Origin: an uncultured Marinilabiliaceae bacterium
GTDB taxonomy: Bacteria; Bacteroidota; Bacteroidia; Bacteroidales; Marinilabiliaceae
Length of the DNA: 64,000 nucleotides
Assembly: GCA_964521525.1 (NCBI GenBank)
Contig: CAZFTD010000001.1
Location: 11,630-75,629, forward strand
Reading direction: 5' to 3'
The notes under the pieces were generated by a model. The model was not told the origin of the DNA. It made no database searches and saw only the letters and a program-made list of their open reading frames with translations. How positions within the stretch are numbered: the first letter of the stretch is position 1; each line of letters opens with the position of its first letter. The position numbers and the translations under genes were made by a program. Shown in pieces: positions 2,672-23,393 of this stretch.

Positions 2672-2692
2672 CGCTTTTTCGTAACCTTTTTA

Positions 2693-3022
2693 ATGCTAAA
2701 ATGTATGACTGAAAACTTTAATATCAATTTTAAAGAAAATAAAGATCAATTAGAAATGGTTTTTAGCGGTCAGTTAACAATTAATTCAATTGCTAAGATA
2801 ACCGAAAGCGTTAAATCTCATTTGAAAAACCCAACCGTGGTTAACATTCAGGTTAAAGACGCAGATAACATTGATCTGACTTTTATTCAATTGTTGCAGG
2901 CAATCAAAAACAGCGGAAAGAAAAAAGGCTTCGACGTCAATGTCTCCTTTTCTGTATCGGACGACATTAAAACCCTGCTTAAAAATGCCGGATTTACAAA
3001 CTATTTAAACGATAAAAACTAA
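2693..3022 (+). CDS. STAS-domain (anti-sigma-antagonist-like) protein
   Basis: About 105 aa with a SpoIIAA-like pattern (...VKDADNIDLTFIQLLQAI...). The start could instead be the ATG at 2705. Confidence 0.6.
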   Translation: MLKCMTENFNINFKENKDQLEMVFSGQLTINSIAKITESVKSHLKNPTVVNIQVKDADNIDLTFIQLLQAIKNSGKKKGFDVNVSFSVSDDIKTLLKNAGFTNYLNDKN

Positions 3023-3036
3023 AACTCTATATTACT

Positions 3037-3402
3037 ATGGCTAAAACCGTTTTAATTGTTGATGACTCCGAAAGTATCCGTGAAGTCGTAAATTTTACTC
3101 TGCAAAACGAAGGGTATGACGTTCTGGTGGGCATAGATGGAGAAGATGCACTCAAATTTTTGGATGGTCGTCACATCGACATTATTATTACCGACTTGCA
3201 CATGCCTAACTTAGATGGGCTGGGTCTCATCAGAAAGGTTCGGGAGATGGATAACTACAAACATATACCCATTCTTTTTCTGACCACTGAATCGCAGGCA
3301 GCGAAAAAAATGGAAGCCAAAGAAGCCGGCGCCACCGGTTGGATTATAAAACCATTTGTACCTGCTAAACTTTTATCAGCTATTTCAAGGGTTATTAGAT
3401 AA
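3037..3402 (+). CDS. cheY: CheY-like single-domain response regulator
   Basis: Receiver motifs: VLIVDDSE, IIITDLHMPNLDG, FLTTES, IIKPF. Confidence 0.9.
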   Translation: MAKTVLIVDDSESIREVVNFTLQNEGYDVLVGIDGEDALKFLDGRHIDIIITDLHMPNLDGLGLIRKVREMDNYKHIPILFLTTESQAAKKMEAKEAGATGWIIKPFVPAKLLSAISRVIR

Positions 3403-3411
3403 TTTAAAGCT

Positions 3412-3750
3412 ATGCTTGAAAATATTAAAAAGCAATTCTACAACAATACCATTAAAGAATTGCTCTTTATAAATGCTAAATTATCTGAAGAATCAATACA
3501 TCCCAACGAAAGTATTTCGCTGGTAAACAGCGTTTTTTCAATTACCCATCAAATTAGCGGTACCGGGCCGATGCTTGGTTTTATGAACACATCAAAGATT
3601 TCAAAGAAAGTTGAAAAAACCTTTTATGAAATAAGAGCAGGCGAAAAAGAACTTACTGCACCCATTATTATGCAAACCAGGCGCGCCCTGGAATCCATAA
3701 TTGACTCCATGAATCAGGAGTTTAACAGCAGTTTGGTTATTTCAGAGTAA
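3412..3750 (+). CDS. Stand-alone Hpt-like phosphotransfer protein
   Basis: THQISGTGPMLGF fits the Hpt motif H-x-(L/I)-(K/S)-G-x-(G/A)-x-x-x-G. The predicted fold is small and helical. It sits directly upstream of cheA. Confidence 0.55.
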   Translation: MLENIKKQFYNNTIKELLFINAKLSEESIHPNESISLVNSVFSITHQISGTGPMLGFMNTSKISKKVEKTFYEIRAGEKELTAPIIMQTRRALESIIDSMNQEFNSSLVISE

Positions 3751-3793
3751 GTGTTTCTGGTTGTATTAATAATGCTATAAAGCTTCACATCTC

Positions 3794-5845
3794 ATGATAG
3801 ATAAGTTTAGAGCGAAGTTTGTTGAAGAGTCCACGGATAATATTCACGATCTGGAAGAAGCGCTGCTCCTTCTGGAAAAGGACATGAGAAATAAAGAACT
3901 TATTGAACGCATTTTCAGGGCCATGCACTCCCTGAAAGGCGGCGGAGCTATGTTTGGCTTTAACCATTTGAGTGAATTTACCCACCATCTCGAAACCATT
4001 TTCGATTATGTTCGTGGCGGAAAACTTCAGGTGAGCACGGAACTTATTTCACTTACATTCTCAGCTATTGACCAAATAAACTTCCTCCTTAAAACCGGAG
4101 ACCTTACCCGTGAAGAAGATTTAGCCGAGCAAAAAGCGTTTATAAAAAAACTGCAATCATTTTTATCAGGATTCGAATCATCCTCTCAAACGTTAGAAAA
4201 AAAGGAATCCCTTTCAGATGTTTCTTCTGCTCCTGAAACCAATGAGAAAACATATCTAATAAGTTTTCTACCACATGAAGATTTGTTGAAAAACGGTACC
4301 AACCCGTTTTATCTGCTGGACGACCTTCATGCTATGGGCAATGCCATTACTCTGGCGTTTGCTCATAAAACACCCTCGCTTGATTTGTTCGAAGTCTCTA
4401 CCAATTATTGTTTTTGGCAGGTAATTTTAAGCTCTGCTGAATCAATTAACGAAATCAGAGATGTTTTTATTTTTGTTGAAGATGAGTGCGAACTTCATAT
4501 TGACCTGATTTCTGAAACTTCAATTGTTAACCGACCCGAAGTAAAAGCCCTGATAGAAAAAGCTTTGCAAACAAACACCCAGCTATCTGTCGACGATTTT
4601 AAACAAAGCGAATGGACCCGAACCGAGGAACAAAAAGATACCGACGATAAAAAGAAAGCATTTTTAAAAGAACACAAAATAGCCAGTATCAGGGTTGCTT
4701 CGCATAAAATTGACGAGTTGGTAACTCTGGTAAGCGAAATGGTTACCATTCAGGCACAATTGTCGTTATATGCCGAAAATAGTGGAGACCCCACTATAAT
4801 GGCGCTTACCGAGAATATCCAGAAGCTTACCCGTCAGTTGCGCGATAACGCTTTCGATGTAAGCCTGATTCCTTTACAAAGCGAATTAATGCGATTTCAA
4901 AGGTTGGTACGCGACCTGTCGAAAGAACAGAAAAAGGATATTGATTTTATAATTGAAGGTGGCGATTTGGAATTGGACAAAAACATTGTAGAGCATTTAA
5001 CCGATCCCCTGCTTCATATTTTGCGAAATTCAATCGACCATGGAATTGAACTGCCACAAGAACGAATTGCAGCCGGCAAATCGCCCAAGGGAACTATAAT
5101 TTTTAAAGCCTACCACTCCGGAGCAAACGTAATTATTGAAATTACCGACGACGGAAAAGGGATTGACCCTGAATTTATTAAACAAAAAGCCGTTAGTAAA
5201 GGAATTATTGAACAGGGAGCAACCCTTGATAAAAAGGAAATTTTTGACCTGCTTTTCATCAGTGGATTCTCAACCCGCGAATCTGTCTCTGATTTGTCTG
5301 GCCGAGGCGTTGGTATGGATGTGGTCAGAAGAAAAATCGCAAACATAAGAGGAGAAGTTTCGTTGGAATCAGAAACCGGCAAAGGAACCATAATTACAAT
5401 TCGTCTGCCACTAACGCTTTCTATTATCGATGGATTATTGGTTAAAGTTGCCAACAATCAATATGTAATTCCTATTTCGGCCATAGAGCAAATTTTCGCT
5501 TTTGACCAATCACAAATGAAAAATACATTCAACAATGTGGTTGTTATCAACAACGAACAAATACCATATATTATACTGCGCAACCTTTTTAACGAACCAA
5601 AACACGATGACGATAAATTCCAGATGGTTTTGATTCGTAGCGAGGAGAAAAAACTAGGAATTATTGTAGATGCTGTAATTGGTGAATACCAAACAGTTGT
5701 AAAACCTTTGGGCCGGTACCTGAAAAAACAGGAAATTATTTCGGGAGCTTCCATTATGGGCGATGGAGCAATTTCCTTAGTAATTGATACCTCACGATTA
5801 TTCCAATCAAGGAGAAGCAGAAAAGCAGCTCACGTTGAAAACTAA
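3794..5845 (+). CDS. cheA: Chemotaxis histidine kinase CheA
   Basis: P1 Hpt motif RAMHSLKGGGAMFGF. HATPase motifs HILRNSIDHGIE, DDGKGID and GRGVGMDVV. C-terminal CheW-like domain. Confidence 0.95.
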   Translation: MIDKFRAKFVEESTDNIHDLEEALLLLEKDMRNKELIERIFRAMHSLKGGGAMFGFNHLSEFTHHLETIFDYVRGGKLQVSTELISLTFSAIDQINFLLKTGDLTREEDLAEQKAFIKKLQSFLSGFESSSQTLEKKESLSDVSSAPETNEKTYLISFLPHEDLLKNGTNPFYLLDDLHAMGNAITLAFAHKTPSLDLFEVSTNYCFWQVILSSAESINEIRDVFIFVEDECELHIDLISETSIVNRPEVKALIEKALQTNTQLSVDDFKQSEWTRTEEQKDTDDKKKAFLKEHKIASIRVASHKIDELVTLVSEMVTIQAQLSLYAENSGDPTIMALTENIQKLTRQLRDNAFDVSLIPLQSELMRFQRLVRDLSKEQKKDIDFIIEGGDLELDKNIVEHLTDPLLHILRNSIDHGIELPQERIAAGKSPKGTIIFKAYHSGANVIIEITDDGKGIDPEFIKQKAVSKGIIEQGATLDKKEIFDLLFISGFSTRESVSDLSGRGVGMDVVRRKIANIRGEVSLESETGKGTIITIRLPLTLSIIDGLLVKVANNQYVIPISAIEQIFAFDQSQMKNTFNNVVVINNEQIPYIILRNLFNEPKHDDDKFQMVLIRSEEKKLGIIVDAVIGEYQTVVKPLGRYLKKQEIISGASIMGDGAISLVIDTSRLFQSRRSRKAAHVEN

Positions 5846-5870
5846 AAGCGCCACCTGAATAAAAGACATT

Positions 5871-6323
5871 ATGGAAAAAGCCAATAAAACCATATTATCA
5901 TTTCAAATCAACCAGAACGAATTTGCCGTTGATGCGCTTCAGGTTGTTCATATTCTCGAAGTTCCACCGCTCATTACCAGAGTACCCAATACATCTGCTT
6001 TTATGAAGGGCGTTATCAACCTGCATGGAAACATTATTCCCGTGGTTGATATGAGATTAATTATGGAAGAAGAGATTGGGATTACAAATGCCGATAATGC
6101 CATAATCGTTATTAGCCCTGCTGACACACAGGACGCGCGCTTTGGCATAATGGTGGATATGGTAAAAGAAGTTTTAGAGATAGATACTGCCAACCTTAAA
6201 GAAACCATTCTGGAAGGGAAAAAAGGATTGATTGAATCATATGAGGGCACCTTATTGTATAATAATACCTTCATTCATATAATTGATATTAATCATTTGG
6301 CCGAAATAGTTGAAAACCAATAG
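5871..6323 (+). CDS. cheW: CheW coupling protein
   Basis: 150 aa with the CheW pattern FAVDALQVVHILEVPPLITRVPNTSAFMKGVINLHGNIIPVVDM. Confidence 0.9.
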   Translation: MEKANKTILSFQINQNEFAVDALQVVHILEVPPLITRVPNTSAFMKGVINLHGNIIPVVDMRLIMEEEIGITNADNAIIVISPADTQDARFGIMVDMVKEVLEIDTANLKETILEGKKGLIESYEGTLLYNNTFIHIIDINHLAEIVENQ

Positions 6324-6337
6324 GATAACCAAAAAAT

Positions 6338-6826
6338 ATGGCTTCTGTACTGAATTCATACCTCACGTTCAAAATCGGAGAAGAAGTTTTTGGCGTAAAC
6401 GTGGCAAAAGTAATGGAGATTCGAGAGTATCAGGCTCCAAAACCACTTCCACAAACCATGCCTTTTGTTTCCGGTGTAATTGAATACCGTGACGAGATTA
6501 TTCCATTAATTGATACTGGCATTAAGTTTGGCATGTCTCCCATCACTATACAATCTGGCACCTGCATCGTTATCCTGCAATTAATCAGCGATACGCTTGG
6601 AAAAACCTATAGAGTTGGTATTTTGGTTGATGCCGTTGCCGATGTATTGGAGTGTGACGATACAAACATGAAAAACATCAACGACGATTATAAGCCCCAT
6701 TATATCTATTCTACCTGCCAAACCGACAGCCATTTGGTTTTTATTCTGAATGCTGATGTGGTTTTCAGTCAGAAAGAAATTATTGGGATGCTTGATATGG
6801 TCAATAAATTAAAAAAACAGGCCTGA
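6338..6826 (+). CDS. cheW: CheW coupling protein (second paralogue)
   Basis: FGVNVAKVMEIREYQAPKPLPQTMPFVSGVIEYRDEIIPLID. Confidence 0.85.
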   Translation: MASVLNSYLTFKIGEEVFGVNVAKVMEIREYQAPKPLPQTMPFVSGVIEYRDEIIPLIDTGIKFGMSPITIQSGTCIVILQLISDTLGKTYRVGILVDAVADVLECDDTNMKNINDDYKPHYIYSTCQTDSHLVFILNADVVFSQKEIIGMLDMVNKLKKQA

Positions 6827-6829
6827 TAA

Positions 6830-7699
6830 ATGGAGAAAACCATAAATACATCGGGAAGCTTCGATTGCTTTAAAGCGGAACTTTCGGAAAGTGATTTCCA
6901 GGTTTTCAGCCGGTTTATATATTCAGAATACGGTATTAAAATGCCGCCCATTAAGCGAATTATGCTTCAAGGGCGGCTGTTGAAAAGAATCAGAGAGCTC
7001 AACATGAGTTCTTATTCTGAATACAAAGAATACTTTTTCAGTAAAGAAGGTCAGGATAAAGAATTACTACAGTTTTTAAACGTAGTAACAACCAATAAAA
7101 CAGATTTTTTCAGGGAACCGGTTCATTTTAATTTTTTAAATGATACCGTGCTTCCTGCTTTCAGAAGTCAAAACACAAGCGGCCAACCGTTTAAGGTTTG
7201 GAGTGCCGGTTGCTCAAGCGGCGAAGAACCATATACCATATCTGTTGTTCTTAACGAATTTGAACGGCTCAATCCTAACTTTAGGTTTGATATTCTTGGA
7301 TCTGACATCTCAACCCAAATGCTTGAAAAAGCGGCCAAAGGCATTTACCAGGCTAACAAGCTTGTTACAGTACCAATGGAACTGAAGAAACGATATTTTC
7401 TAAAAAGCAAAGATCCCCATAACCAAACAGTTAGGGTGCACCCGCTTTTGCAAAAAAATATTCGGTTAACCTATCTTAATTTGATGGATAACCTATACTC
7501 TATAAAAGAAACATTCGATGTGATTTTCTGTCGTAATGTGTTAATCTATTTCGACAGACAAACACAGGAAAGAGTAATTAACAAGCTTTGTTTGCAACTT
7601 AAACCGGGAGGTTATTTTTTTATCGGACATTCCGAGTCGCTGTCGGGCATGAATGTACCTCTTGAACACATCAAACCAACCATATTTAAAAAACTGTAA
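6830..7699 (+). CDS. cheR: CheR chemotaxis protein methyltransferase
   Basis: TTNKTDFFREPVHF, VWSAGCSSGEEPYT, GSDIS...AAKGIY, IFCRNVLIYFD. Confidence 0.92.
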   Translation: MEKTINTSGSFDCFKAELSESDFQVFSRFIYSEYGIKMPPIKRIMLQGRLLKRIRELNMSSYSEYKEYFFSKEGQDKELLQFLNVVTTNKTDFFREPVHFNFLNDTVLPAFRSQNTSGQPFKVWSAGCSSGEEPYTISVVLNEFERLNPNFRFDILGSDISTQMLEKAAKGIYQANKLVTVPMELKKRYFLKSKDPHNQTVRVHPLLQKNIRLTYLNLMDNLYSIKETFDVIFCRNVLIYFDRQTQERVINKLCLQLKPGGYFFIGHSESLSGMNVPLEHIKPTIFKKL

Positions 7700-7734
7700 G
7701 TATAACAATCAAGACGAAATAACACAGCAAAACT

Positions 7735-8634
7735 ATGACGAACATTTCTGACAAACAGCTTTTGAAAGAGTTAAAAACCAAACTCGAAGAGCGTAAGAAA
7801 TATGAGGAAGAGATTAGCCTGCTATCACAGGAGCTTCAAACCGTTACTCAACGTTTTAAAGAATCGGAAGCATTAAAAAGCCACTTTATCTCAAATATAT
7901 CCAATGAAATAGTAAACCCTTTTACGTCCATTCTTGGTTTATCCAAATCTATTCTTTCAGTTGAGAAAAACGACTGGAAAAAAGTGGTAAGCATGGTTGC
8001 ATTAATCCATAGCGAAGCCTTTAATCTCGACTTCCAGCTGAAAAACATTTTTGTGGCCGCAAAAATTGAAGCCGGCGAAGTGGTTCCAAACATTGCAAAG
8101 GTTAACGTTCGCAACATTGTTCAAACCATGATCGATTCATTCGGCCTTGTGGCACGCAAAATGGCCATCGACATCGAGTTTCAATTCAACATTGAATACG
8201 GATTTGGCAAAAACTTCTATTTTAAAACCGATAGCGAAAAATTAAAGCTTATACTGAGTAACCTCATGAATAATGCTTTAAAATACAGCTATAAGGATAG
8301 CAAAGTTATAATTACCGTTTGGGTAGATGAAGATATTCTAAATATTTCGGTACAAGACTTTGGCACAGGCATTTCTGAAAAAAATCAAAAAGTTATCTTC
8401 GAACGCTTCAAGCGACTGGATTCAGGCATTAACTCGATTAACCGTGGACACGGACTTGGGCTATCCATAACAAAAGCCTTACTGGATGTTATGGGCGGTA
8501 CCATTGAAATCGAAAGTAAAAAAGGAGAAGGGTCAACCTTCTATGTCAGAATTCCGGAAGCAAAAAATATTGTTGAAGGGTTCAGTGGTGAAGGAAATGA
8601 TATTTTCTTCGATGGAGATGATGAGATTTTTTAA
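7735..8634 (+). CDS. Soluble histidine-kinase paralogue (coiled coil, DHp-like and HATPase domains) with Asn in place of the phospho-acceptor His
   Basis: H-box region KSHFISNISNEIVNPFTSILG versus the canonical FLQNMSHEIRTPLNAVIG seen in the 55067-58780 kinase. N-box NLMNNALKYS, G1 DFGTGI and G2 GHGLGLSI are intact. Confidence 0.8.
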   Translation: MTNISDKQLLKELKTKLEERKKYEEEISLLSQELQTVTQRFKESEALKSHFISNISNEIVNPFTSILGLSKSILSVEKNDWKKVVSMVALIHSEAFNLDFQLKNIFVAAKIEAGEVVPNIAKVNVRNIVQTMIDSFGLVARKMAIDIEFQFNIEYGFGKNFYFKTDSEKLKLILSNLMNNALKYSYKDSKVIITVWVDEDILNISVQDFGTGISEKNQKVIFERFKRLDSGINSINRGHGLGLSITKALLDVMGGTIEIESKKGEGSTFYVRIPEAKNIVEGFSGEGNDIFFDGDDEIF

Positions 8635-8645
8635 GAAAGCATTAG

Positions 8646-9116
8646 ATGGACCAATATTTACAACATTTTTTGTATCCTTCTACGCTGTTTGCCAGTAAAG
8701 AACCTTACATGGTTAAAACCATTCTGGGCTCATGCGTGGCAATATGTCTGTACGATCCGGTACTGAAAGTTGGAGGCATCAATCATTATATGCTACCCAA
8801 CTGGAACGGTAACGATCTGGCATCGCCAAAGTACGGAAATATTGCCATTGAAAAGCTGATTGAACGGATGGTGTTTTATGGATGTAAAAAAGAAAACCTA
8901 CAGGCGAAAATATTCGGCGGGGGCGACCTCATTGCTGCCGACAGAAGCGCCATGATGATAGGAGAGCGCAATATTCGGGTAGCCAGGTTAATTCTGGAAG
9001 AAAAGAACATTCCCGTAGTTGCCTCAAGTACCGGAGGACGAAAAGGCCGTAAAATATTGTTTTTCACCGATACTGGCGAGGTTCGGCATAAGTTTCTGGA
9101 TAAAAAGGAGTATTAG
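8646..9116 (+). CDS. cheD: CheD chemoreceptor glutamine deamidase
   Basis: 156 aa. [13 protein letters not shown] (catalytic Cys region) and KIFGGG. Confidence 0.88.
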
Positions 9117-9135
9117 ATACCTGGCAAGTTCAGCT

Positions 9136-10215
9136 ATGGAGAAAAAAATCAGGGTATTAGTTGTTGATGATTCGGCAGTGGTTAGGCAGAGCCTCACCAC
9201 CATTCTGGAGTCGGACCCCCAGATTGAAGTTATGGGCACTGCCGCCGATCCGCTTATTGCCGTAAAAAAAATAATGAAAGAAGTCCCTGATGTAATTACC
9301 CTTGATATTGAAATGCCGCGAATGGATGGACTCACCTTCCTTCGTAAAATAATGTCGCAACACCCTATCCCGGTTGTCGTTATTTCATCGTTAACAAGCC
9401 AGGGAACCGAAGTTGCCATGAAGGCTCTTGAATATGGCGCTTCCGAAATTATTGGGAAGCCAGCCATGAATGCTGCACAGTTTTTTAACGAATCAAAAAT
9501 TATACTGTGCGATGCAGTTAAAGCAGCCTCTCAGGCTAAACTCTCTCGTCTGAAAATTGCTTCCTCACCTACAGTTGAGTTGGTTAAACCCAAGTATTCG
9601 GCCGACATAATTCTTGAGAAAGCCTCACTAAAAAGCAGGATCGTTGATACTGAAAAAATAATAGTATTGGGAGCTTCCACCGGCGGCACCGAAGCCATAC
9701 GTCTGTTATTACGTAATTTGCCTTCACGTATGCCCGGAATTGCCATTGTACAGCATATGCCCGAAGGATTTACCAAATCATTTGCCAACAGCCTTAATGC
9801 CAACTCAGAACTGGAAGTAAAAGAAGCCGAAGATGGCGACCGGCTCTATCAGGGTCGTGTGCTCATTGCTCCCGGAAATCATCATATGTTGCTTAAAAGA
9901 GTCGGAAAAGAATATTCAGTGGAAGTGAAGGAAGGCCCGCTGGTTAACCGACACCGCCCATCGGTTGATGTGCTTTTCCGCTCTGCCGCCAGGTACGCGG
10001 GCCAAAATGCCACTGGTATTTTGCTTACCGGTATGGGTGCCGATGGTGCAAAAGGGTTGTTAGAATTGAAAGAAGCTGGCGCCAATACTATTGCACAGGA
10101 CCAGCAAACATCCGTTGTTTTTGGTATGCCCAAGGAGGCTATTAAATTAGGTGCGGCTGATGAAATTCTAGGTATAGATGCCATTGTTCCATTCCTGATT
10201 AAAAAATTTCACTAA
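9136..10215 (+). CDS. cheB: CheB receiver-methylesterase
   Basis: Start reassigned to the ATG at 9136 ([13 protein letters not shown]), because the 9019 start would overlap cheD by about 100 nt. REC domain plus [24 protein letters not shown] and [11 protein letters not shown]. Confidence 0.92.
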
Positions 10216-10680: not shown

Positions 10681-12558
10681 ATGAAAAAAATTAAAATAAA
10701 ATCGCTGTTAACAAAATATAGTTTTCAAGGAGCCGTGCTAGGGGTTATTGTTTCCCTTATAATATTTCTTTTAAGCATGGACTCCCCTATTTATAAAACA
10801 ACCAACAGCTCGTTTATCGATCTGTTTACGCTTTTTCCTGCCTTATGGGCTGTGTTGCTGATACCCGTTGTTGGCGCCCTGTCTGGATATTTTGTTGCCA
10901 GGCGGTTTTCGTCCATTATTAAAAAGCAATCTAATAAATTAAAAAAAGAAGCCAGTCGTACCGAAATGGTTCTTTCGTTTATCGACAATTTAAGACAGGA
11001 CAAATTAGACGAGCCCATCAACGTCAAAGATAAAAACGATTCACTTACACAAGCCCTTTTAAACTTAAGGGGCTTTATGGTTCAAAGCAAGCAGGAGCAA
11101 CAACAGCGCCGGATTGAAGAGGAACAAAGAAACTGGGTTACGCAGGGGCTGGCTCAATTTGGTGAAATTCTGCGTCAAAATACAGATAACCTCGAAGAGC
11201 TTTCATACAATATTATTCGCTACCTTGTTACCTACCTCAAAGTTAATCAGGGTGGCGTTTTTCTGGTTAATCAAACCAAAGCCGGTGAAAAATATCTTGA
11301 GATGACCGCCTGCGTTGCCTATGACCGTAAAAAATTTGCCGATAAAGTTATTAATTGGGGTGAAGGCCTTTTAGGCCGCTGTGCTCTGGAAAAAGAAACC
11401 ATCTTTATAACCGATGTTCCTAACAACTATATAACCATCACATCCGGGCTGGGTGACTCCAACCCGGGAACTCTTCTTCTGGTTCCTTTAAAAACCAATG
11501 AAGAGTTGTTTGGGGTTATTGAGCTTGCTTCATTTCAAATACTTCAGAAATTTGAAATTGAATTTGTTGAAAAAACAGCTGAAAGCATTGCCTCTACCAT
11601 TGCCACGGTAAAAAACAACATTCAAACCACAAAATTGCTTCGGGAAACACAAATTCAGGCCGAAAAAATGTCGCAACAGGAAGAAGAACTGCGTCAAAAC
11701 CTTGAAGAAATGCGTGCCACTCAGGAGGAAAGCGATCGACGGGAAATTGAACGTAAGGGCATTCTGGATGCCATTGACCATGCTGCCATCTCTTGTGAAT
11801 TTGATACCACCGGAACACTTTTATCGGTTAACGAGAATTTCCTGAAAACTTTTAAATACAAGCCGGAGGAGGTTGAAGGGCAGCACCTTAAGATATTCTT
11901 TTTTAAAGATGACGTAAGCGAATTAGACCGCATATTGGCCGACCTTTCTAACGGTCATAACTTCCGTGGACGCGTGCGCAGAAGAACCAAAGCCGGCGAA
12001 GAAATTTACCTGTTAACCACCTATAGTCCTGTAATTGACCACAATGGCGAAATTTTGAAAATTCTTAGCCTCGAAAACGATGTAACAGAACAGGTTAAAA
12101 TGGAAGAGGCCCTCAAACATGCCAAAGAGGAACTCGGTTTACTGCTCGAGGAAGCACGAAACGAAGTGAAGGAACAGTTCAAGGAAATTGAATCAGTTAA
12201 AATAAGAAACGAAAAAACCCTTGAAGGAGCACTTGATGCCATTATTACAACAAACAGGGAGGGGGTTCTTGAATTCTTTAATGCTGCTGCCGAAAAACTA
12301 TGGGGTTATGACCGCAGCGAGGTGCTGGGTCAAAATGTATCAATGCTCTTCTCAAAAGAAACAGCCAAAACCAACATGTTTGTTTCTGGATTTATTTCAA
12401 GCGATGGACAAAAAATTGTGGGCGAGCGCCGTGAAATACCAATCCGCAACAAATATGGCGAAGATATACCCGTTCTATTTTTGCTTTCAGAAGCAAAAGT
12501 AGGCGACGACCATTCATTCACTGCTTTTATACAAAATGTTGAAGTAGAATTATTTTAA
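10681..12558 (+). CDS. Membrane sensor: 2 TM, coiled coil, GAF, E/Q-rich coiled coil, PAS, PAS; no output domain
   Basis: TM segments near residues 15-32 and 45-72. GAF signature ITSGLGDSNPGTLLLVPLKTNEELFGVIELASF. Two PAS-like blocks. The protein ends right after the second PAS. Confidence 0.85.
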   Translation: MKKIKIKSLLTKYSFQGAVLGVIVSLIIFLLSMDSPIYKTTNSSFIDLFTLFPALWAVLLIPVVGALSGYFVARRFSSIIKKQSNKLKKEASRTEMVLSFIDNLRQDKLDEPINVKDKNDSLTQALLNLRGFMVQSKQEQQQRRIEEEQRNWVTQGLAQFGEILRQNTDNLEELSYNIIRYLVTYLKVNQGGVFLVNQTKAGEKYLEMTACVAYDRKKFADKVINWGEGLLGRCALEKETIFITDVPNNYITITSGLGDSNPGTLLLVPLKTNEELFGVIELASFQILQKFEIEFVEKTAESIASTIATVKNNIQTTKLLRETQIQAEKMSQQEEELRQNLEEMRATQEESDRREIERKGILDAIDHAAISCEFDTTGTLLSVNENFLKTFKYKPEEVEGQHLKIFFFKDDVSELDRILADLSNGHNFRGRVRRRTKAGEEIYLLTTYSPVIDHNGEILKILSLENDVTEQVKMEEALKHAKEELGLLLEEARNEVKEQFKEIESVKIRNEKTLEGALDAIITTNREGVLEFFNAAAEKLWGYDRSEVLGQNVSMLFSKETAKTNMFVSGFISSDGQKIVGERREIPIRNKYGEDIPVLFLLSEAKVGDDHSFTAFIQNVEVELF

Positions 12559-12573
12559 TAACACCCCTTAAGC

Positions 12574-13422
12574 ATGCAGAATAGCGGAGAGGATATTACA
12601 TTTAAAGAATATCTGCAAATACTTAAGGATTCCTCACCTTACGATTTCAGTGAATATTCCGATAATTCGATATACAGGCGCATCCATAAGGTTATGCGCG
12701 ATTACCGGCTGAGCTTAAACGAATTAGTGGCAAAAACAAAATCAGACCAGGATTTTGTAGAGCAAATTGTTGAGGCAATTACAGTTAATACCACCGAACT
12801 ATTTCGTGACCCCTCGGTTTGGGTTTACATATTGCAAAAGCTGCTACCTCAATTTAAAAATAAACCTAACATAAATATTTGGCACGCAGGATGTTCATCA
12901 GGTCAGGAGGTTTATTCCAACCTAATTTTACTCAATCATCTGGGACTTTTAAAACAATCGACTGTTTATGCTACCGACATAAGTCAAAAAGTACTCGACC
13001 AAGCTAAAAAAGGAATATATAAGTATCGGTTTAATTTAAATTACATCGAAAACTTTAATCAGGTTTTGGGTGTTAACGAACCCAAAGTTGATTTTTCAAA
13101 GTATTTCGATATCAATGAATCAGAAGACAAAATTGTGGTTAAAGAATTCTTAAGAACATTACCTAAATTTATAAAGCATGATCTGGTTCAGGAAAAACTG
13201 CCGTTCTATAATAAATTTGACATCATTTTTTGCCGAAACGTATTGATTTATTTTAATCCGGACTTACAGTCGCGCATCATTCAACGATTTCACGATAATC
13301 TTTTTCCTGGTGGGTCTATGATTTTAGGCACGCACGAAGCCATAACCGGATTCTTTAAAACCAAGTTCGTTAAAAACGGTCCGGTATATTCAAAAAGCAA
13401 CGTATTTCATTTTAAATATTAA
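12574..13422 (+). CDS. CheR-type SAM-dependent methyltransferase (paralogue 2)
   Basis: TTELFRDPSVW, IWHAGCSSGQEVYS, ATDIS...AKKGIY, IFCRNVLIYFN. Confidence 0.88.
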   Translation: MQNSGEDITFKEYLQILKDSSPYDFSEYSDNSIYRRIHKVMRDYRLSLNELVAKTKSDQDFVEQIVEAITVNTTELFRDPSVWVYILQKLLPQFKNKPNINIWHAGCSSGQEVYSNLILLNHLGLLKQSTVYATDISQKVLDQAKKGIYKYRFNLNYIENFNQVLGVNEPKVDFSKYFDINESEDKIVVKEFLRTLPKFIKHDLVQEKLPFYNKFDIIFCRNVLIYFNPDLQSRIIQRFHDNLFPGGSMILGTHEAITGFFKTKFVKNGPVYSKSNVFHFKY

Positions 13423-13424
13423 AA

Positions 13425-14249
13425 GTGAACTTCAGTATAACTGATATCAAAGAATTGACCTTTTCCATGTTGGGCTATCCCAATATGGACTATACCAACT
13501 ATTCTTTATCGTTTTTAAAAAGAAGGTTGGCAATAGTTTTCACAAGCTTAAACATTAGGCGAAAAGATCAATTTCTTGAAATGCTGAAGAAAAAGGATTT
13601 CAGAGATCAGGTAATCACACGCATGTTGGTTGATAATACTGAGATGTTCAGAGACCCGGCTTTTTGGCGTATGCTAAGAGATAAAATTGTAAAGGATTTG
13701 CCCTCCAATAGCGCCATATGGTTTCCATGCGAAAGCAGTGGAGAGGAAGTTTATTCATTATCCATTATTCTTCACGAGCAAAATCTTGCATCCCGATTTA
13801 AATTAATTTGCAGCAACCCATCCATTGAAAAAGGTAATGCCATTAACCAAGGTAAGTTAAACGCAAAGCTCTTCGATTTAAATCACACAAATTACAGGCG
13901 TTTAGAAGAAAATGAATTATTCGATTCATATTTCACTATACAGAACGGTCATCTGTTTGTTTGCGAAAAATTAAGAGAAAATGTAAATTGTGTACACGGA
14001 AGTATTTCTGACACCATACCTTCAGGAGTTGTGTCGCTCATATTATTTAGAAATGTATCCATATATTATAATCATCGTCAGGCAGCCTCTGTTTTTGATA
14101 TATTATATGAAAAACTAATGCCGGGAGGTTTTCTCGTTATAGGAGTTAAGGAAAAACTCCCTGAAAAAATTGCCGACAAAATGATAGTAATCGACGAAAC
14201 AGAAAAAATTTACAAAAAACCTTTGCCGCGAACCAATGGATTATATTAA
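13425..14249 (+). CDS. Divergent CheR-like protein (paralogue 3, GTG start)
   Basis: NTEMFRDPAFW is retained, but IWFPCESSGEEVYS, CSNPS (in place of the (T/S)DIS motif: ATDIS / GSDIS), INQGKL (in place of KGIY) and LFRNVSIYYN have diverged. Confidence 0.75.
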   Translation: MNFSITDIKELTFSMLGYPNMDYTNYSLSFLKRRLAIVFTSLNIRRKDQFLEMLKKKDFRDQVITRMLVDNTEMFRDPAFWRMLRDKIVKDLPSNSAIWFPCESSGEEVYSLSIILHEQNLASRFKLICSNPSIEKGNAINQGKLNAKLFDLNHTNYRRLEENELFDSYFTIQNGHLFVCEKLRENVNCVHGSISDTIPSGVVSLILFRNVSIYYNHRQAASVFDILYEKLMPGGFLVIGVKEKLPEKIADKMIVIDETEKIYKKPLPRTNGLY

Positions 14250-14820
14250 ATCAGACAGAAATTTTAAACTCATAGTTTTGGGTGGTTCTGCAGGAAGTTT
14301 TTCTGTAGTATCAAAAATTTTGTCTCAATTAAAACCCGATTTTAAAATACCTTTGATTCTTTCGCTGCATCGGTTAAAACACCTACGGTCGGGGTTGGTG
14401 GAAAGCCTCAGTTATAAATCGGCCATTGAAATCATTGAACCCTGCGATAAAGACAAAATCAATAACAACTTTGCATATCTGGCCCCATCGAACTACCACC
14501 TGTTTGTTGAATTCGATGGAACACTGTCGTTATCAACAGAAGAGTCGAACAACCATAGCCGGCCATCTATCGACTATACTTTATCGTCGGCGGCCTATGC
14601 CTACCGTGATAAAACATTGGGAATTCTGCTTACCGGAGCCAATCGCGATGGGGCTCAGGGGCTAAAAGATATTGCCGATCACAACGGATATACCATTGTG
14701 CAGGATCCTAAAACCTGTGATATTGATACCATGCCACAGTCTGCATTACGGTTGTTCACACCCAACCAGATTCTGACACCCGACCAAATTGTGCAATTTT
14801 TAAATAGCCTACCACAATGA
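14236..14820 (+). CDS. Receiver-less CheB-type methylesterase
   Basis: 194 aa, catalytic domain only. LIVLGGSAGSF, SLHRLKH, PSIDYTLSSAA, LLTGANRDGAQG. Overlaps the preceding gene by 14 nt. Confidence 0.85.
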   Translation: MDYIKSDRNFKLIVLGGSAGSFSVVSKILSQLKPDFKIPLILSLHRLKHLRSGLVESLSYKSAIEIIEPCDKDKINNNFAYLAPSNYHLFVEFDGTLSLSTEESNNHSRPSIDYTLSSAAYAYRDKTLGILLTGANRDGAQGLKDIADHNGYTIVQDPKTCDIDTMPQSALRLFTPNQILTPDQIVQFLNSLPQ

Positions 14821-15590
14821 ACATACAACTACTTAAAAAAAAATCGCTGATGTTTTGGCTTTTTTTATTGGCAGGCATTATTTTTCTGCTGTCAATAACT
14901 CGTTATTTTCTTTTCGAGGTGAACGCCGAATCGTGGTTTTATTATTTTGAAGTGACATCGTTCTTTTTGCTGATAGTCATGTTAATTCTGGCCGAAAAAC
15001 TTTATCATAACTATAACAATCAAATAATCCGCCAAAAAGAAAAGTATGAAAGCGAAATCAACGAATTGCTTGAAAAAAATGTGTCGTTAACAAGTAAAAT
15101 TTCTTTCTACGAAAGAGCTGAATTCGAAGCTTATGAGCTTAGTGAAAAACAGGATAAATTATTAAGCAGCATTGTAAACATGGGGGGGGCATCCAATCAC
15201 AGCCGAAGTTTTCTCAGTTTGTTTTCAGATGCAACACAGGCCATGTCGGCAATTCTTTACACAGAAACACAACCCTCGGGCAATTTTATCGTACAAGAAA
15301 CTTACGGTATTCCCGAAGATTACACCCCAGCTCCGTTTTCTATATCTGAAGGATTAAATGGTCAGGTTGTTGCCGAAGGAAAACCATTGGTAATAGAGGA
15401 AATACCAGAAGATTATTTTAATGTGCAATCGGGATTGGGAAATTCCAGACCACGATTTCTCTATTTTTTACCGGTTATAAAAGATAAAACGTGTGTGGCT
15501 TTAATTGAATTAGCTACCTTTAAAAAAACTGATTTAGAAAAAATGTGGCACCATGTTTCGGCCAAAATAATTGAAAAAGGATTATTATAA
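14817..15590 (+). CDS. Membrane protein: 2 TM, coiled coil, GAF
   Basis: ATGA start/stop overlap with the preceding gene. GAF signature DYFNVQSGLGNSRPRFLYFLPVIKDKTCVALIELATF is paralogous to those of the 10681 and 15600 proteins. Confidence 0.8.
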   Translation: MNIQLLKKKSLMFWLFLLAGIIFLLSITRYFLFEVNAESWFYYFEVTSFFLLIVMLILAEKLYHNYNNQIIRQKEKYESEINELLEKNVSLTSKISFYERAEFEAYELSEKQDKLLSSIVNMGGASNHSRSFLSLFSDATQAMSAILYTETQPSGNFIVQETYGIPEDYTPAPFSISEGLNGQVVAEGKPLVIEEIPEDYFNVQSGLGNSRPRFLYFLPVIKDKTCVALIELATFKKTDLEKMWHHVSAKIIEKGLL

Positions 15591-15599
15591 CAGAACGAA

Positions 15600-18212
15600 A
15601 TGCCTGTTAATACCAACAAAATAAAGGAATGGAGGAAACTATTCTCCCTTAAGGAGGTTTCCTACTCACAGAAATTCATCCTGTTTTCTTCAGTGATTTT
15701 TCTGCTTATTCTAATCTGGTCGGGATTTCTGGCTTTAAAAGAATCCAAACTTTCATTATTAAATATTATTGCCCTGCATAAAACAGTTTTAGTCTGGTTT
15801 ACAGATTTTCTGGTACTTGCACTGGCATTTTCTGGTATTGTTTACTATAATTTGCTGAAAAACAAGACTCAAAAACTTAGAAATGAAATAGCCGTTTTAA
15901 ATGAACGCATTACACATAACATTAACCTGGCCAATAATTTAAAGCAGGCTAAATGGGATGCACTCAAATCAAACGGAGACAGTTTATCCCAAGCACTATT
16001 AGATTTGGGTGAAAATATAAAAGAAAGCAATAAAAGAGAAGAAGAACAAAACTGGATAACCCTGGGTAAAGACCAAATATCGGAACTCCTTCGCAATGCT
16101 CATAATCTGGAAGACCTTTCTGTTTCGGTATTGAAGGCGCTTATCAATTACATGGGTGGTATTCAGGGAGCATTTTATCTCGAACAAAATAATATTTTGA
16201 AGCGAACAGGTATGTATGCCTACGGCCGCCGCCGGTTCGAATACAATGAAATACCAATTGGAAAGGGATTAATTGGTGCTGCCGCCTACGAAAAAGCACT
16301 AATTTTTCGGTCTGAAATACCCGATGATTATTTTACCATTACCTCAGGTTTACTGGGTGAGCAAAAGCCCAAAAGTATTTTACTGATACCGCTTTTACAG
16401 GAAGAAACTCTTCAGGGAGTTTTGGAAATCGCATTTCTCGAAAACCGAATCCCCCGGTTTAAAATTAGTTTTGCCGAAGAAGTTGGTTCCATCATAGGCC
16501 AAACCATATACAACCTTAAGATTACCACCCGTACCGAAATGCTTTTGAAAGAATCGCAGGAAATGACTAGTACTCTCAAGAAAAATGAAGAGCAGCTGCG
16601 TCAAAATGCCCGCGAAATGATTGAAGCCCAGGAAGAATTGGAGCGCAGCAACCAAATGCTTGAAAAGCAGATACAAGAGGTAGCCAATTCGCAAAAGAAA
16701 CTGGAAGCGTTGCTCACCAATGCCTCTGAGTTTATTTCAATCTACGACGAAAATCAGGAGTTGGTATTCGAGAGTCCTTCAGTAAAACGAATATTGGGTT
16801 ATTCCGACAATGATATCGTAACTGGTATGGATCCTGAGGTTCTAACTCCCCGTGGACTAAAAACCATTAACCAGTTATTCCAATACCTGATTGATACTCC
16901 GGGAGGCGAGCAAACAGCACAATATACCTACCTAAGAAAGAACGGTGAAAAACTTTTCCTCGAAACCAAAGGAAAAAACCTCCTGCACGACCCTGCCATT
17001 CGCGGTATAATCTTTAACACTCAGGATATTACTGAGCGGAAGCGAGCCGAAAAAGAGGAGCGTATGAAAAGCCGTATGCAAAGTTTGTCTGAAAACTCTC
17101 CGGATATGATTATCCGTATCAACCTGTTTGGCAAACTAATTTATGTAAATCCGGCTGTTGCTAGTTTTATCGATCTGCCTGCTGCCGATCTGGTTAAGAA
17201 AAGAATTGTGGATCTTGAAATTGACCCGCGATTTATCGATTTCATGCAGGAAACGCTGGCCTATATTAAAGAACAACAACAACAAATAATTTCCGAAGTG
17301 GCCGTTAGTTCTCAAAATGGAGAACGAATAATGGAAATAAAGGCAATTCCTGAACTTGGCGAAGAAGGTGAATTAGAAACCATTCTTTTTGTTGCTCATG
17401 ATATGACCGAGTTCAAAAAAATAGAACAGGAAATAAAAGAGAAAAACAAAAAGATTTCTGATAGTATCAATTATGCCCAACGTATTCAAACGTCAATTTT
17501 ACCCGATACACGTCTGTTGCAGGAATTCTTCCCCCGATCGTTTATTTTCTATCGACCAAAGGATGTGGTGAGTGGCGATTTCCCCTGGTTTTTCCGTAAA
17601 GACAACATTTACTACATAGCTGCCGTAGATTGTACCGGACATGGTGTGCCCGGAGCTCTCATAAGTTTTATCGGGCACTTCCTGCTAAATAACATTGTAA
17701 GTTTGGAGCACAATCTCACAGCATCTCAAATTCTTGACAACCTCCATCTTGAAGTTAGAAGTACGCTAAAGCAAGACCAGGAAGGGGCTTTAGGCCGCGA
17801 TGGTATGGATTTGGCACTTTGTAAAATCGACCCTGATAACCAAACACTTGAATTCTCAGGAGCCCACCGTCCGCTTTATTTTTTACGGAAAGGAGAATTA
17901 ACCGAATATCAAGGCACACGAAAGGGCATTGGCGGTATTCCTTTGGCAAAAAAAGTAGAGAAAGACTTTGAAAATCATATCATTCATTACCAAAAAGGCG
18001 ACCAGATATTTATTTTCAGCGATGGATTACCCGACCAGTTAGGCGGCCCCGAGCGAAAAAAATATCAGGCCAAAAGGATACGTGAAGCTTTAACCGAAAA
18101 ACCAGATGCATCAATGGCGCATTTCTCACGCTACTTTTCAATGGACTTTTATGAATGGTTAGGCGATGAAAAACAAGTTGATGATGTACTTTTGATTGGA
18201 ATTGAATTGTAA
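15600..18212 (+). CDS. Membrane sensor phosphatase: TM, coiled coil, GAF, E/Q coiled coil, PAS, PAS, PP2C/SpoIIE (SiaA/RsbU-like)
   Basis: PP2C motifs YAQRIQTSILPD, SGDFPWF, AVDCTGHGVPGA, GRDGMDLAL, FSDGLPDQ, VDDVLLIG. The GAF and PAS blocks resemble those of the 10681 protein. Confidence 0.9.
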   Translation: MPVNTNKIKEWRKLFSLKEVSYSQKFILFSSVIFLLILIWSGFLALKESKLSLLNIIALHKTVLVWFTDFLVLALAFSGIVYYNLLKNKTQKLRNEIAVLNERITHNINLANNLKQAKWDALKSNGDSLSQALLDLGENIKESNKREEEQNWITLGKDQISELLRNAHNLEDLSVSVLKALINYMGGIQGAFYLEQNNILKRTGMYAYGRRRFEYNEIPIGKGLIGAAAYEKALIFRSEIPDDYFTITSGLLGEQKPKSILLIPLLQEETLQGVLEIAFLENRIPRFKISFAEEVGSIIGQTIYNLKITTRTEMLLKESQEMTSTLKKNEEQLRQNAREMIEAQEELERSNQMLEKQIQEVANSQKKLEALLTNASEFISIYDENQELVFESPSVKRILGYSDNDIVTGMDPEVLTPRGLKTINQLFQYLIDTPGGEQTAQYTYLRKNGEKLFLETKGKNLLHDPAIRGIIFNTQDITERKRAEKEERMKSRMQSLSENSPDMIIRINLFGKLIYVNPAVASFIDLPAADLVKKRIVDLEIDPRFIDFMQETLAYIKEQQQQIISEVAVSSQNGERIMEIKAIPELGEEGELETILFVAHDMTEFKKIEQEIKEKNKKISDSINYAQRIQTSILPDTRLLQEFFPRSFIFYRPKDVVSGDFPWFFRKDNIYYIAAVDCTGHGVPGALISFIGHFLLNNIVSLEHNLTASQILDNLHLEVRSTLKQDQEGALGRDGMDLALCKIDPDNQTLEFSGAHRPLYFLRKGELTEYQGTRKGIGGIPLAKKVEKDFENHIIHYQKGDQIFIFSDGLPDQLGGPERKKYQAKRIREALTEKPDASMAHFSRYFSMDFYEWLGDEKQVDDVLLIGIEL

Positions 18213-18254: not shown

Positions 18255-18818
18255 ATGGAAAAAGAGAACCAAGGGTTTCTGGAGTTTGCTTATCAACTCT
18301 ACAAAACCATGAAAACCAATGAAATAAATTTGGTTTACGAAGGAGAAGTCACTCAGGAAATAACAAAAACCTTTACTTCTCTTACCGAAAAAAGCCTATC
18401 TAAAAGTGCGGAATCAAACACCGTGCAGAAAAAGGTATTTAATGTAATGGTAGAATGTTTACAAAACATCAGTAAACATGCCGATTCGTTAAACGATGAA
18501 GACGAAGAACGCAGAGGCATTGTAATGGTGAGTAAAGGGGAAGACAGTTACAACATCATTACCGGCAACGTTATTAAAAATGAAAAAGTTCCCGAGCTGA
18601 AAAAAAGCCTCGAGCTCATCAACAGTCTCGATAAAGAAGGTCTCTCAATCCTGTTTAAACAACAGATAAAAGAAACAACTATTTCGGATAAAGGAGGCGC
18701 CGGGCTTGGATTAATTGATATTGCAAAAAAGACAGGAAGTAAATTAACTTACCAGTTTAAAGAGCTTAACGAGAATGTATCCTTTTTCATTTTAACATCT
18801 ACCATTAAGAGAAACTGA
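18255..18818 (+). CDS. SiaB-like (GHKL-fold) Ser/Thr protein kinase
   Basis: N-box-like VMVECLQNISKHA and G-box-like DKGGAGLGLIDIAKK. Size and position match SiaB-family proteins, which sit between the PP2C and the DUF1987 partner. Confidence 0.7.
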   Translation: MEKENQGFLEFAYQLYKTMKTNEINLVYEGEVTQEITKTFTSLTEKSLSKSAESNTVQKKVFNVMVECLQNISKHADSLNDEDEERRGIVMVSKGEDSYNIITGNVIKNEKVPELKKSLELINSLDKEGLSILFKQQIKETTISDKGGAGLGLIDIAKKTGSKLTYQFKELNENVSFFILTSTIKRN

Positions 18819-19237: not shown

Positions 19238-22200
19238 ATGAGCGAAGAAATTCTTAAAGCCCTAATGCAACTGTTTGGCTTGCTGACCAAACAGGACGGC
19301 GGTGTGGAATCCAATGAAACCGAGTACGTGCGTACTTTTCTGAAACAGCAGCTTAATAGCGAGGCGGTTGAAGAGTACTTCTCTCTTTTTTTAAGTTTTA
19401 CCGAAGAGGATAATAAAAGCCGCAATGGCGAGGAGGAAGGAAAAGTTCAACTTACTTCCATGAAAGACTCGGTAAAGATTCTCGGCATTTGCAAAAAAAT
19501 TAATAAGCAGCTCAACCGCGAACAAAAAGTAGTGGTACTGGTTCGGCTCTACGAACTTATCAGCATGGACATGAAGCTGACCGACCAGCGCATGGCCATC
19601 ATCAATACGGTTGCCGATGTTTTTAAACTGCCTAAAAACGAAATTCTTGCCATTGAGGCTTTTGTTCTTCAAAACGACCCCGAAAAACTCGGCTTCCCGG
19701 ATATTTTAATTGCCAACGACCGCGAAGTAGATAACGTTCATTATAAACACATTACCACCACAGGCCTACATGGAGCCATTCTGGTTTTAAACGTTAAAAG
19801 TGCCGATTTGTACTTTATGCGGTATACCGGCAATCAGGACGTTTTTCTAAATGGTCTTATTATCAGCAACAAAAGAATTTATCTGTTCCCCAAAGGAAGT
19901 TTTATCAGAATCCCCAAAGGCAAACCAATTTATTACACCGATGTTGTAAGCCGTTTTCTTGAAGATGCTGATTCTCCAAAGATTTCGTACGAAGTTAAGA
20001 ACGTTCATTTCCGCTTTAAAACCGGCGATGTTGGATTGCGTAACATCAATATTGCTGAAGAACAAGGGCGACTGATTGGAATAATGGGTGCATCGGGCGC
20101 CGGCAAAACCACCCTTCTCAATGTTTTATCGGGCATAGAAAAGCCAACCGAAGGCGAAGTTCTCATAAACAATTATAACCTGCACACCGATAAGGAAGAA
20201 CTTAATGGTGTTATCGGTCTAATTCCACAGGACGACCTGCTCATTGAAGAACTTACGGTTTTTGAGAACCTCTATTACAACGCCAAACTTTGTTTTAAAG
20301 ATAAGGGAGAAGAGGAATTAACCAACCTTGTTAACGAAACCCTTCAAAACCTCGGACTTTTCGAGCGCCGGCACCTGAAAGTTGGTTCGCCACTCAATAA
20401 AATGATTAGTGGTGGCCAAAGAAAACGATTGAATATTGCGCTTGAGCTCATCCGCCAACCCTCAGTATTGTTTGTTGATGAGCCAACATCAGGGCTTTCA
20501 TCGCGCGATTCGGAAAACGTGATGAACCTGCTTCAGGAATTGGCACTTAAAGGGAAATTGATTTTTGTTGTTATTCACCAGCCATCATCGGACATTTATA
20601 AAATGTTCGATAAAATGTTTATTCTCGATACCGGCGGGTACCCCGTGTATTATGGCAACCCCGGCGAATCGCTTATTTATTTTAAACAACTCGATGCCCA
20701 GATTAACAGCGATCAGGGTGAATGCCCAACATGTGGGAACCTTAATCCCGAATTAATTTTCAATATTATCGATGCCAATGTTATTGATGAATATGGAAAT
20801 TATACCAACAAACGAAAAGTGACTCCTGAAGAGTGGTTCCATCATTACGAAAAAACCCATTCCGTACCTGTTGTTAAAACCATTCAAACATCTCCACCAA
20901 AAAGCCTGAACATTCCTTCGTGGTTTAATCAGTTTAAAATTTACACCTTACGCGATTTTTTTTCAAAAATCAGTAATACGCAATATATTGCGTTGAACCT
21001 GCTGGAAGCGCCTTTGCTGGGTTTTATTCTTGCTTATTTGGTGCGTTACATCGCCGACCCAACCTCCAGCATTTATATTTTCCGCGAAAACGAAAACATC
21101 CCGCCCTATATTTTTATGGGCATTGTGGTGGCTTTGTTTTTTGGATTGATTATTAGCGCCGAGGAAATTTTTAAAGATGCCAAAATATTAAAAAGAGAGT
21201 CGTTCCTGAATTTGAGCCGCTCCAGCTATTTGAGTTCTAAAATTTTACTGTTGTTTACCATTTCTGCCATTCAGATGGTTCTGTTTGTATTGGTAGCCAA
21301 TAGTGTGCTGGGTATCAAAGATATGTACTTTGAATTTTGGATTGCACTCTTCTCCATTTCGGCATTTGCTAATATTCTGGGTTTGATTTTATCGGCTTCG
21401 TTTAATTCAATTGTTACCATATATATTCTTATTCCACTGGTAATGATACCCCAGATGGTTTTAGGCGGCGCCATGTTTACTTTCGATAAGTTAAACAAAG
21501 ATTTCACAAGCGTTGATAAAGTTCCGGCGGTGGCTGAATTTATGCCATCGAGGTACGTTTACGAAGGATTAATTGTGCACCAGTATAAACACAATAATTT
21601 TAAAAAGAACATTTTTGACGTTGAACTTGAAGAGAGCAAAAGTGATTTCAAGCAGGTACATTATATACCTGAATTGCGACAGATTTTAAACGAATGCTCT
21701 ATTCACGTAATTAATGGCAAAGCAAAAAATGATAAAACGTTTGTCAATAACCTTCAGTTAATTCGGAATGAGATTTCAAAAGAAATGATGCGGGTTCCTG
21801 ATTTGCCATTTGCATCGATGGATAAACTATCGCCCGAATATTTCGATACAGCTGTTGCGGCTAGTGTAGACAACTACCTTAACGATTTGCTAAAATACTA
21901 CAGAGGTGTATTTTCAAAAGCAAACTCCTTAAAAGATAGGTTTATCAGCACCAATCTCGATCAGGATGCTGCCCGCTTTAACCGCATTAAGGACGATTAT
22001 TTTAACGAGAGTATTTCTTCAATAGTACGAAAAGAGTTTGAGAAAAATAAAATTCTTCGCCAGGGAAATAATCTGGTACAAATGGCCGATCCTATTTACC
22101 AGATTCCTGAGCCATCGGGCTTTTTATCGTTCAGAACGCACTTTTTTGCACCGGTTAAACACTTAGGTGGGCACTTTTTTGAAACCCTCTGGTTTAACAT

Positions 22201-22306: not shown

Positions 22307-22364
22307 CTTTTATTTTTCATAATAGTATAAAAGACAATATTTGAAAACTTTAAATCGCTTTATC

Positions 22365-23282: not shown

Positions 23283-23393
23283 TTTTGCATAAATATCCAT
23301 GCAAAAAGTTAGAAGATAAAATTGTGAAATTAAAGCCGGCTGTTACATGTAACCGCTTGTTTTATTTTACCTTAACAAACAAATTTTGACAAT

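Follow-up and report, generated by a model that had tools for sequence, protein, structure and literature searches.

Which proteins are modified by CheR and CheB enzymes that are encoded beside, and not within, a chemotaxis operon? The question is raised by a stretch of 64,000 nucleotides from an uncultured Marinilabiliaceae bacterium (the window; contig CAZFTD010000001.1), in which a canonical che operon (962-10215, + strand, as are all features given here) is followed, after a gap of 465 bp, by a second set of CheR and CheB genes and by GAF-domain sensors. A sequence-only reading had proposed the E/Q-rich helices of two of these sensors as the substrates. Here we argue that the helix following the GAF domain of the first, protein A, is likely to be methylated by the neighbouring CheR2 and demethylated by CheB2, acting, in the manner of RsbK, as a methyl-accepting signalling helix.

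The che operon encodes an MCP (962-2671), STAS, CheY, Hpt, CheA, two CheW, CheR1, a kinase, CheD and REC-CheB, in that order. The kinase, a 299-residue sensor-less histidine kinase (7735-8634), lies between cheR1 and cheD, a place that is kept in related loci. Beyond the gap follow protein A (10681-12558), CheR2 (12574-13422), CheR3 (13425-14249), CheB2 (14236-14820), a GAF-only paralogue with two transmembrane segments (14817-15590), protein B (15600-18212), a SiaB-family protein kinase (DUF6272; 18255-18818; NF038262, 170.5 bits against a cut-off of 85), a SiaC-family phosphoprotein (PF09345; 18833-19213), an ABCG-type transporter with a weak TerB-like N terminus (19238-22306) and two further genes. 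The gap holds 4 promoter-like sites against 4.4 expected, and no terminator was found in it. In every cassette seen, the GAF-only paralogue ends just short of the helix; it could be an unmethylatable partner subunit. The transporter is a recurrent member of the cassette; the two genes after it (313 and 150 residues, within 19238-23846) have no Pfam or NCBIfam match, accompany the cassette together with the transporter in several families (loci L031, L033, L041 and L045) and have counterparts that flank a che operon in L139. The genome as a whole encodes three clear MCPs and two canonical CheRs, having a second canonical CheR/CheB.

Protein A (625 residues) comprises two transmembrane segments, a GAF domain (residues 170-307), the helix and two PAS domains, with no output domain. 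The peptide singled out earlier is in frame at 11641-11745 (residues 321-355, that is, R321 and the quoted peptide), and its paralogue in protein B is likewise in frame from 16551 onward (residue 318 onward); both lie, as had been stated, between homologous GAF domains (phmmer E 5e-38) and a PAS domain. The helix as we delimit it in protein A runs from L319 to E355 (11635-11745) and carries Glu-Glu pairs at 335/336, 342/343 and 349/350, plus E328, at a spacing of 7 residues. An AlphaFold2 model of the GAF-helix fragment gives one continuous helix over residues ~290-360 (mean pLDDT 91). From hydrophobic periodicity we infer that M330/L337/M344/S351 and A327/E334/L341/Q348 form the core of a coiled coil and that the pairs at 328/329, 335/336, 342/343 and 349/350 face outward.

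Conservation of the helix exceeds that of the domains on either side. Among the best 120 of 3839 homologues of protein A, which are 65-97% identical to it and whose named close members are Marinilabiliaceae, every Glu and Gln from E322 to E350 is invariant; as the sequence-only reading required of a methylation site, 17 E, Q, A and T positions (E322, Q324, Q326, E328, Q332, Q333, E334-E336, Q339, E342, E343, A346, T347, Q348, E349 and E350) are the same in 120 of 120. Mean column conservation in these rows is 0.94 for the helix, compared with 0.81 for the GAF domain, 0.83 and 0.82 for the PAS domains and 0.84 for the coil before the GAF domain. Within this pattern, E342-E343-M-R-A-T (11704-11721) fits the CheR consensus given, with Tsr methylation sites spaced 297/304/311, in the accessible part of PMC1079850; it is a better match to that consensus than A-T-Q-E-E-S, one of the segments that had been put forward. 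A Glu pair followed by x-x-A-(S/T) occurs for 32 of 3735 Glu pairs in the genome (0.9%) and, at the helix site, for 133 of the 150 representatives of the family, a figure that is partly circular and leans upward because the profile used to find the representatives included the helix. The Gln-Glu deamidation that had also been suggested fares poorly: the inferred register places Q348 in the core, which makes its deamidation unlikely, and within the loci fetched CheD occurs only beside che operons.

Database searches gave the helix little company. No Pfam family was found for it (best match 0.007, in one member), nor any related solved structure (best match a designed coil, E 0.014), and PDB matches to the GAF-helix module span the GAF domain only. 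Run against the ORFs of its own genome, the helix profile did not retrieve the methylation helices of the MCPs, so that homology between the two is not established.

The closest precedent is the kinase RsbK, which the accessible part of PMC4574943 describes as CHASE3-HAMP-GAF-S-helix-HK-REC; there, purified RsbM, a CheR-like protein unpaired with a cognate methylesterase, moves 14C-methyl from SAM to RsbK, and the methylation site is placed on the S-helix with reference to an earlier paper. As a reference we used the RsbK of a Bacillus cereus-group record (NZ_CP093325.1), in which H505 and D827 match the numbering of PMC4574943, as far as that source could be consulted, and which carries an rsbK-rsbM-rsbY-sigB cluster. 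(This 5.5-Mb record is filed as a plasmid; as it holds the chromosomal sigB cluster, it is probably the chromosome.) The GAF-helix modules of protein A and RsbK are 27% identical (E 4e-28), and the two helices align without gaps from RsbK L422, opposite L319 of protein A, bringing the RsbK pairs 431/432, 438/439, 445/446 and 452/453 into register with 328/329, 335/336, 342/343 and 349/350. Chen and colleagues are said to have identified, in 2012, E439 of RsbK as the main methylation site and E446 as a minor one. These residues would, we presume, correspond to E336 and E343 of protein A and to Q332 and E339 of protein B. A literature search, supplements included, gave no confirmation of E439 as the site, turned up no other methylated kinases and yielded nothing relevant on a CfcA/CheR3 lead. 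By this alignment the pair E335-E336 (11683-11688), in register with E438-E439 of RsbK, is a second candidate site. The sequence-only reading had looked instead to kinases fused to CheB and CheR as its precedent; the helix profile, run over 251 genomes, hit none of these, and RsbK/RsbM is closer.

Protein A and RsbK share a sensor-HAMP-GAF-helix layout with pairs in equal register, a stand-alone CheR gene next to the sensor gene (the two CheRs belonging to one broad group) and a pathway with a PP2C, which lies downstream of RsbK and within the cassette. They differ in that RsbK holds a histidine kinase and a C-terminal receiver in the same chain whereas protein A has neither; in the helix motif itself, QN(L/M)EE(L/M)xATQEE in protein A and repeats of Q(S/A)EELxxQ in RsbK; in output, a SiaB/SiaC switch compared with RsbV/RsbW/sigma-B; and in the reuse of the helix across many proteins in Bacteroidota. 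The cassette, moreover, includes a CheB, whereas RsbM is described as unpaired in the accessible text of PMC4574943.

The candidate writer resembles RsbM more than the chemotaxis enzymes. CheR2 is a stand-alone protein with intact SAM-binding motifs, 36% identical to an RsbM orthologue (E 3e-50) and 28% identical to CheR1 of the window (E 2e-27); a profile of cassette CheRs scores RsbM at 299 bits versus 140 bits for CheR1. A quick tree built from 130 CheR domains, in which six cassette CheRs had been labelled automatically as chemotaxis proteins and were reassigned by eye, places the cassette CheRs together (56 rows, support 85) beside RsbM-type CheRs; fused CheRs lie apart, as do the chemotaxis CheRs, a separate group of 18 rows with support 100. 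CheB2, the proposed eraser, lacks a receiver domain and carries Ser, His and Asp motifs, which a strict pattern finds in 46 of 64 stand-alone CheBs. A complex prediction of CheR2 with a dimer of the GAF-helix fragment returned a score of 0.00 and is given no weight in either direction.

Both CheR paralogues had been taken for enzymes, a view that stands for CheR2 and falters for CheR3. The SAM site of CheR proteins includes the acidic Asp of the A-T-D-I motif. In CheR3 this residue is absent from 14 of 14 orthologues and the glycine motif is degraded; on its sequence, CheR3 is a probable pseudo-enzyme that looks inactive. A CheR with a degenerate SAM site beside an intact one (this window, L125, L128, L129, L137 and L197) is found in Marinilabiliaceae and, on a separate branch, in family f41, which suggests that a pseudo-methyltransferase partner evolved repeatedly. 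That a degenerate CheR3 is kept in all 14 orthologues of its clade implies a non-catalytic role for some CheR, and with it an alternative in which CheR2, CheR3 and CheB2 dock on or recognise the helix without modifying it, with CheR, for example, as SAM sensor or scaffold and the methyl acceptor elsewhere. We regard this as unlikely: most cassettes in genomes without an MCP contain one CheR with intact motifs and a CheB with Ser, His and Asp motifs, the conserved residues of the helix are those of the consensus acceptor with its flanking small residues, and the homologous helix of RsbK is methylated according to the accessible part of PMC4574943.

If CheR2 and its relatives act on the helix, the two should travel together. 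We searched 251 Bacteroidia genomes (sample 1; absence here stands for no match in the assemblies searched; the unpublished genomes G088 and G166 enter the tallies and denominators only) with a helix-only profile of 44 columns, calling a genome strong at a best E of 2.5e-9 or lower; 6 of the 19 strong genomes, that of the window included, had contributed to the profile. Matches occur in 21 of 251 genomes, 19 of them strong and spanning 8 families, and the 2 weak ones are RsbK-type kinases. A strong helix is present in 19 of 20 genomes with a CheR of the cassette clade and in 0 of 231 others (19/1/0/231), for which the Fisher p (1e-27) is overstated because the genomes are related and kin are not independent. 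G079 has a cassette CheR and CheB and no helix was found in it even at E<=1; G051 has a CheR fragment-CheB-GAF array at a contig end with no helix match, and counting it gives 19/21. Three genomes of family f41, which have a clade CheR without a GAF neighbour and lack the full GAF module, were predicted to have the helix and do, with 6-7 matches each. In a second sample of 331 genomes, partly overlapping the first, the 4 strong helix genomes are those with the 4 top cassette-CheR scores (at least 360 bits, the next being 331), only G520 among them being new; a weak helix match (6.8e-6) occurs in G309, which has no cassette-type CheR. Gene context was read from a contig scan that picked loci by a helix-derived pattern and was used for context, not for conservation at those positions. 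Co-occurrence of this kind cannot tell a substrate from a docking site, for which it accounts equally.

It does bear on an ordinary acidic coil, kept for dimerization or signalling structure or for pairing of paralogues and with no link to methylation. The plain long helix given by AlphaFold is what such a coil would look like, and E/Q-rich coils after the GAF domain are found in 29 kinases without an adjacent CheR. We nevertheless hold this account to be quite unlikely, since the specific motif is found in 0 of the 231 genomes without the CheR clade, the inferred outward positions vary no more than the core, and RsbK-type kinases away from CheR have fewer Glu pairs: they have 1.45 EE(L/M) units (n = 29), as against 3.6 in those with a CheR at <=1.5 kb (n = 29), the kinases near CheR also having longer helices.

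The same genomes speak to the part played by chemotaxis. The neighbouring CheR and CheB had been called MCP-less, which is untrue of this genome with its three clear MCPs and of the window with one at 962-2671; what holds is that the cassette CheR-CheB-GAF-PP2C-SiaB-SiaC recurs in genomes where neither an MCP nor CheW was found. MCPs over the cut-off occur in 9 of 251 genomes and in 3 of the 19 strong helix genomes, and none was found in the other 16. Stand-alone CheRs are present in 60 of 251, with an MCP in only 6 of these genomes and none in the other 54; GAF-helix matches occur in 65 of 251, and in 41, 4 of them with an MCP, such a gene lies <=8 kb from a stand-alone CheR. Proximity to chemotaxis genes could mean that CheR2 and CheB2 serve the MCPs of the upstream operon, or that CheR1, CheB1 and CheD modify the helix: protein A directly follows the che operon in Marinilabiliaceae loci, two MCPs bear the helix, and in L190, L198 and L201 A-type genes adjoin cheY-cheA-cheW(-cheR-cheD-cheB), with no MCP inside the stretch fetched. 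With 16 of 19 helix genomes lacking an MCP over the cut-off, a CheW domain found in 0 of the 10 MCP-less cassette genomes tested and CheR2 grouping apart from the chemotaxis CheRs, we find either version very improbable.

Another modification of the helix would be phosphorylation of T347, with the SiaB-family kinase adding the phosphate and the PP2C removing it. T347 is conserved in 99% of the 150 family representatives, and SiaB and SiaC, besides belonging to the cassette, are likewise encoded by those f41 and f64 genomes that were tested. We give this almost no credence: SiaB is present in 142 of 251 genomes and the helix in 19, so that the distribution of the helix follows the CheR clade rather than SiaB; the CheR consensus accounts for the threonine; and the known target of SiaB is SiaC, according to the accessible part of bioRxiv 2022.03.11.484041.

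Methylation by CheR2, which we favour, applies less well to protein B (870 residues: two transmembrane segments, GAF, helix, two PAS domains and a SpoIIE/PP2C domain as SiaA-like output). Its helix (16542-16660) is a degenerate paralogue with E331-Q332, R338-E339 and E345-E346 in place of the pairs, and scores 19.9 bits with the helix profile. Across 30 GAF-PP2C rows the helix is deleted in 4, its motif is unrecognisable in 9 (register uncertain), Glu pairs are in register in 5 and misregistered in 2, and in the remaining rows, 10 of 30, consisting of close relatives and this window, the first residue of the key pair is not Glu. Because the helix is degenerate or missing among the PP2C rows, protein B is a weaker candidate than protein A, and the earlier view of both helices as the most plausible substrates for CheR and CheB is upheld for protein A and weakened for the copy in protein B. 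In Geofilum rubicundum JCM 15548 (L151) the orthologue of protein B is apparently split into two open frames of 367 and 433 codons.

Proteins of the A type form an output-less family. A profile search found a kinase, PP2C, receiver or MCP domain in 0 of the 150 top representatives, and in the 25 of these scanned with Pfam no output domain was found, their inputs being dCache, Cache3-Cache2, PilJ and HAMP. The helix occurs in up to nine copies, after GAF, after PAS or in tandem, with its motif kept throughout, and the genes occur as scattered paralogues and as tandem arrays of four or five; in Chondrinema litorale, nine listed replicons give A-type matches. Beyond this family the helix is also found in histidine kinases, PP2Cs and one MCP of helix-bearing genomes, and in one Persicobacter MCP. 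These two MCPs (L228:940-4119 and L247:584-3262) are cytoplasmic multi-PAS proteins in which it lies between PAS domains, with SpoIIE phosphatase genes nearby; the CheR of L228 has a long branch and falls outside the chemotaxis CheRs. A 59-codon open frame near an A-type gene of genome G184 (L257:1617-1793) contains an isolated helix copy and is probably a gene remnant.

Three known systems invite comparison. In the accessible parts of bioRxiv 2022.05.07.491037 and PMC6943060, MAC proteins combine receptor and kinase with CheB/CheR that are fused (MAC1) or associated (MAC2), the MAC2 concept being credited to Wuichet and Zhulin 2010; the 2022 preprint, in the part accessible, describes MAC proteins as experimentally uncharacterised. 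MAC2 shares with the cassette a coiled-coil protein, separate CheB and CheR and independence from CheW; by that description it is set apart by a receptor and kinase in one chain, where A is output-less and B a phosphatase. In MAC1, CheB and CheR are fused with coil and output, whereas here they are separate ORFs and fused CheRs fall in another group of the tree. The A helix has the CheR consensus and heptad spacing of the E. coli MCP Tsr (accessible part of PMC1079850) but lacks the signal hairpin (PF00015); MCP systems use CheA and CheW, of which none was found in the MCP-less cassette genomes tested, and MCP-type CheB has the receiver that CheB2 lacks. With neither kinase nor hairpin, the A helix stands outside the RsbK, MAC and MCP families. 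SiaABCD of Pseudomonas aeruginosa has PP2C, SiaB-family kinase and SiaC in the order of the cassette; there, however, the diguanylate cyclase SiaD adjoins siaC where the window has the ABCG transporter, there is no coupling to CheR/CheB as in the window, and protein B scores 163.9 bits against a SiaA cut-off of 700, below equivalog level. A literature search, with most subscription papers outside its scope, found no paper on the Bacteroidota cassette. By analogy, the cassette most likely works like the RsbK S-helix and MCP adaptation, as a variant of the RsbK/RsbM-MAC principle.

In the mechanism that we propose, protein A would dimerize through its GAF domain and a parallel coiled coil, and CheR2 would use SAM to methylate the second Glu of the pairs, most likely E343 and E336, the methyl groups being removed by the receiver-less CheB2. 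Neutralization of charge may then alter the packing of the coil and reset signal flow, as in chemoreceptor adaptation. The helix would act as a portable tag, allowing one CheR/CheB pair to tune many sensors. How the output-less protein A reaches an output is a matter for a guess, and a tentative one: it may control the PP2C/SiaB/SiaC switch by forming mixed dimers or clusters with protein B. More doubtful still, though conceivable, is a second chemoreceptor-like network in Bacteroidota that is free of CheA and CheW, in which output-less sensor-HAMP-GAF receptors with one to nine portable tags would signal through GAF and coil contacts to PP2C-SiaB-SiaC, with one CheR/CheB pair writing and erasing genome-wide on receptors, kinases, phosphatases and some MCPs.

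Reversible methylation of glutamate outside chemoreceptors rests on few tested cases, and this cassette, which would supply the writer and probably the eraser as well and for which the residues can be named (E336 and E343), makes a long-standing prediction directly testable. Were the tag real, it would provide a short module by which engineered sensors could be given adaptation and would explain why many Bacteroidota keep CheR and CheB without chemoreceptors, as in the 54 of 60 genomes above. The presence of the helix on many signalling proteins of chemoreceptor-poor bacteria points to a putative chemotaxis-like adaptation system.
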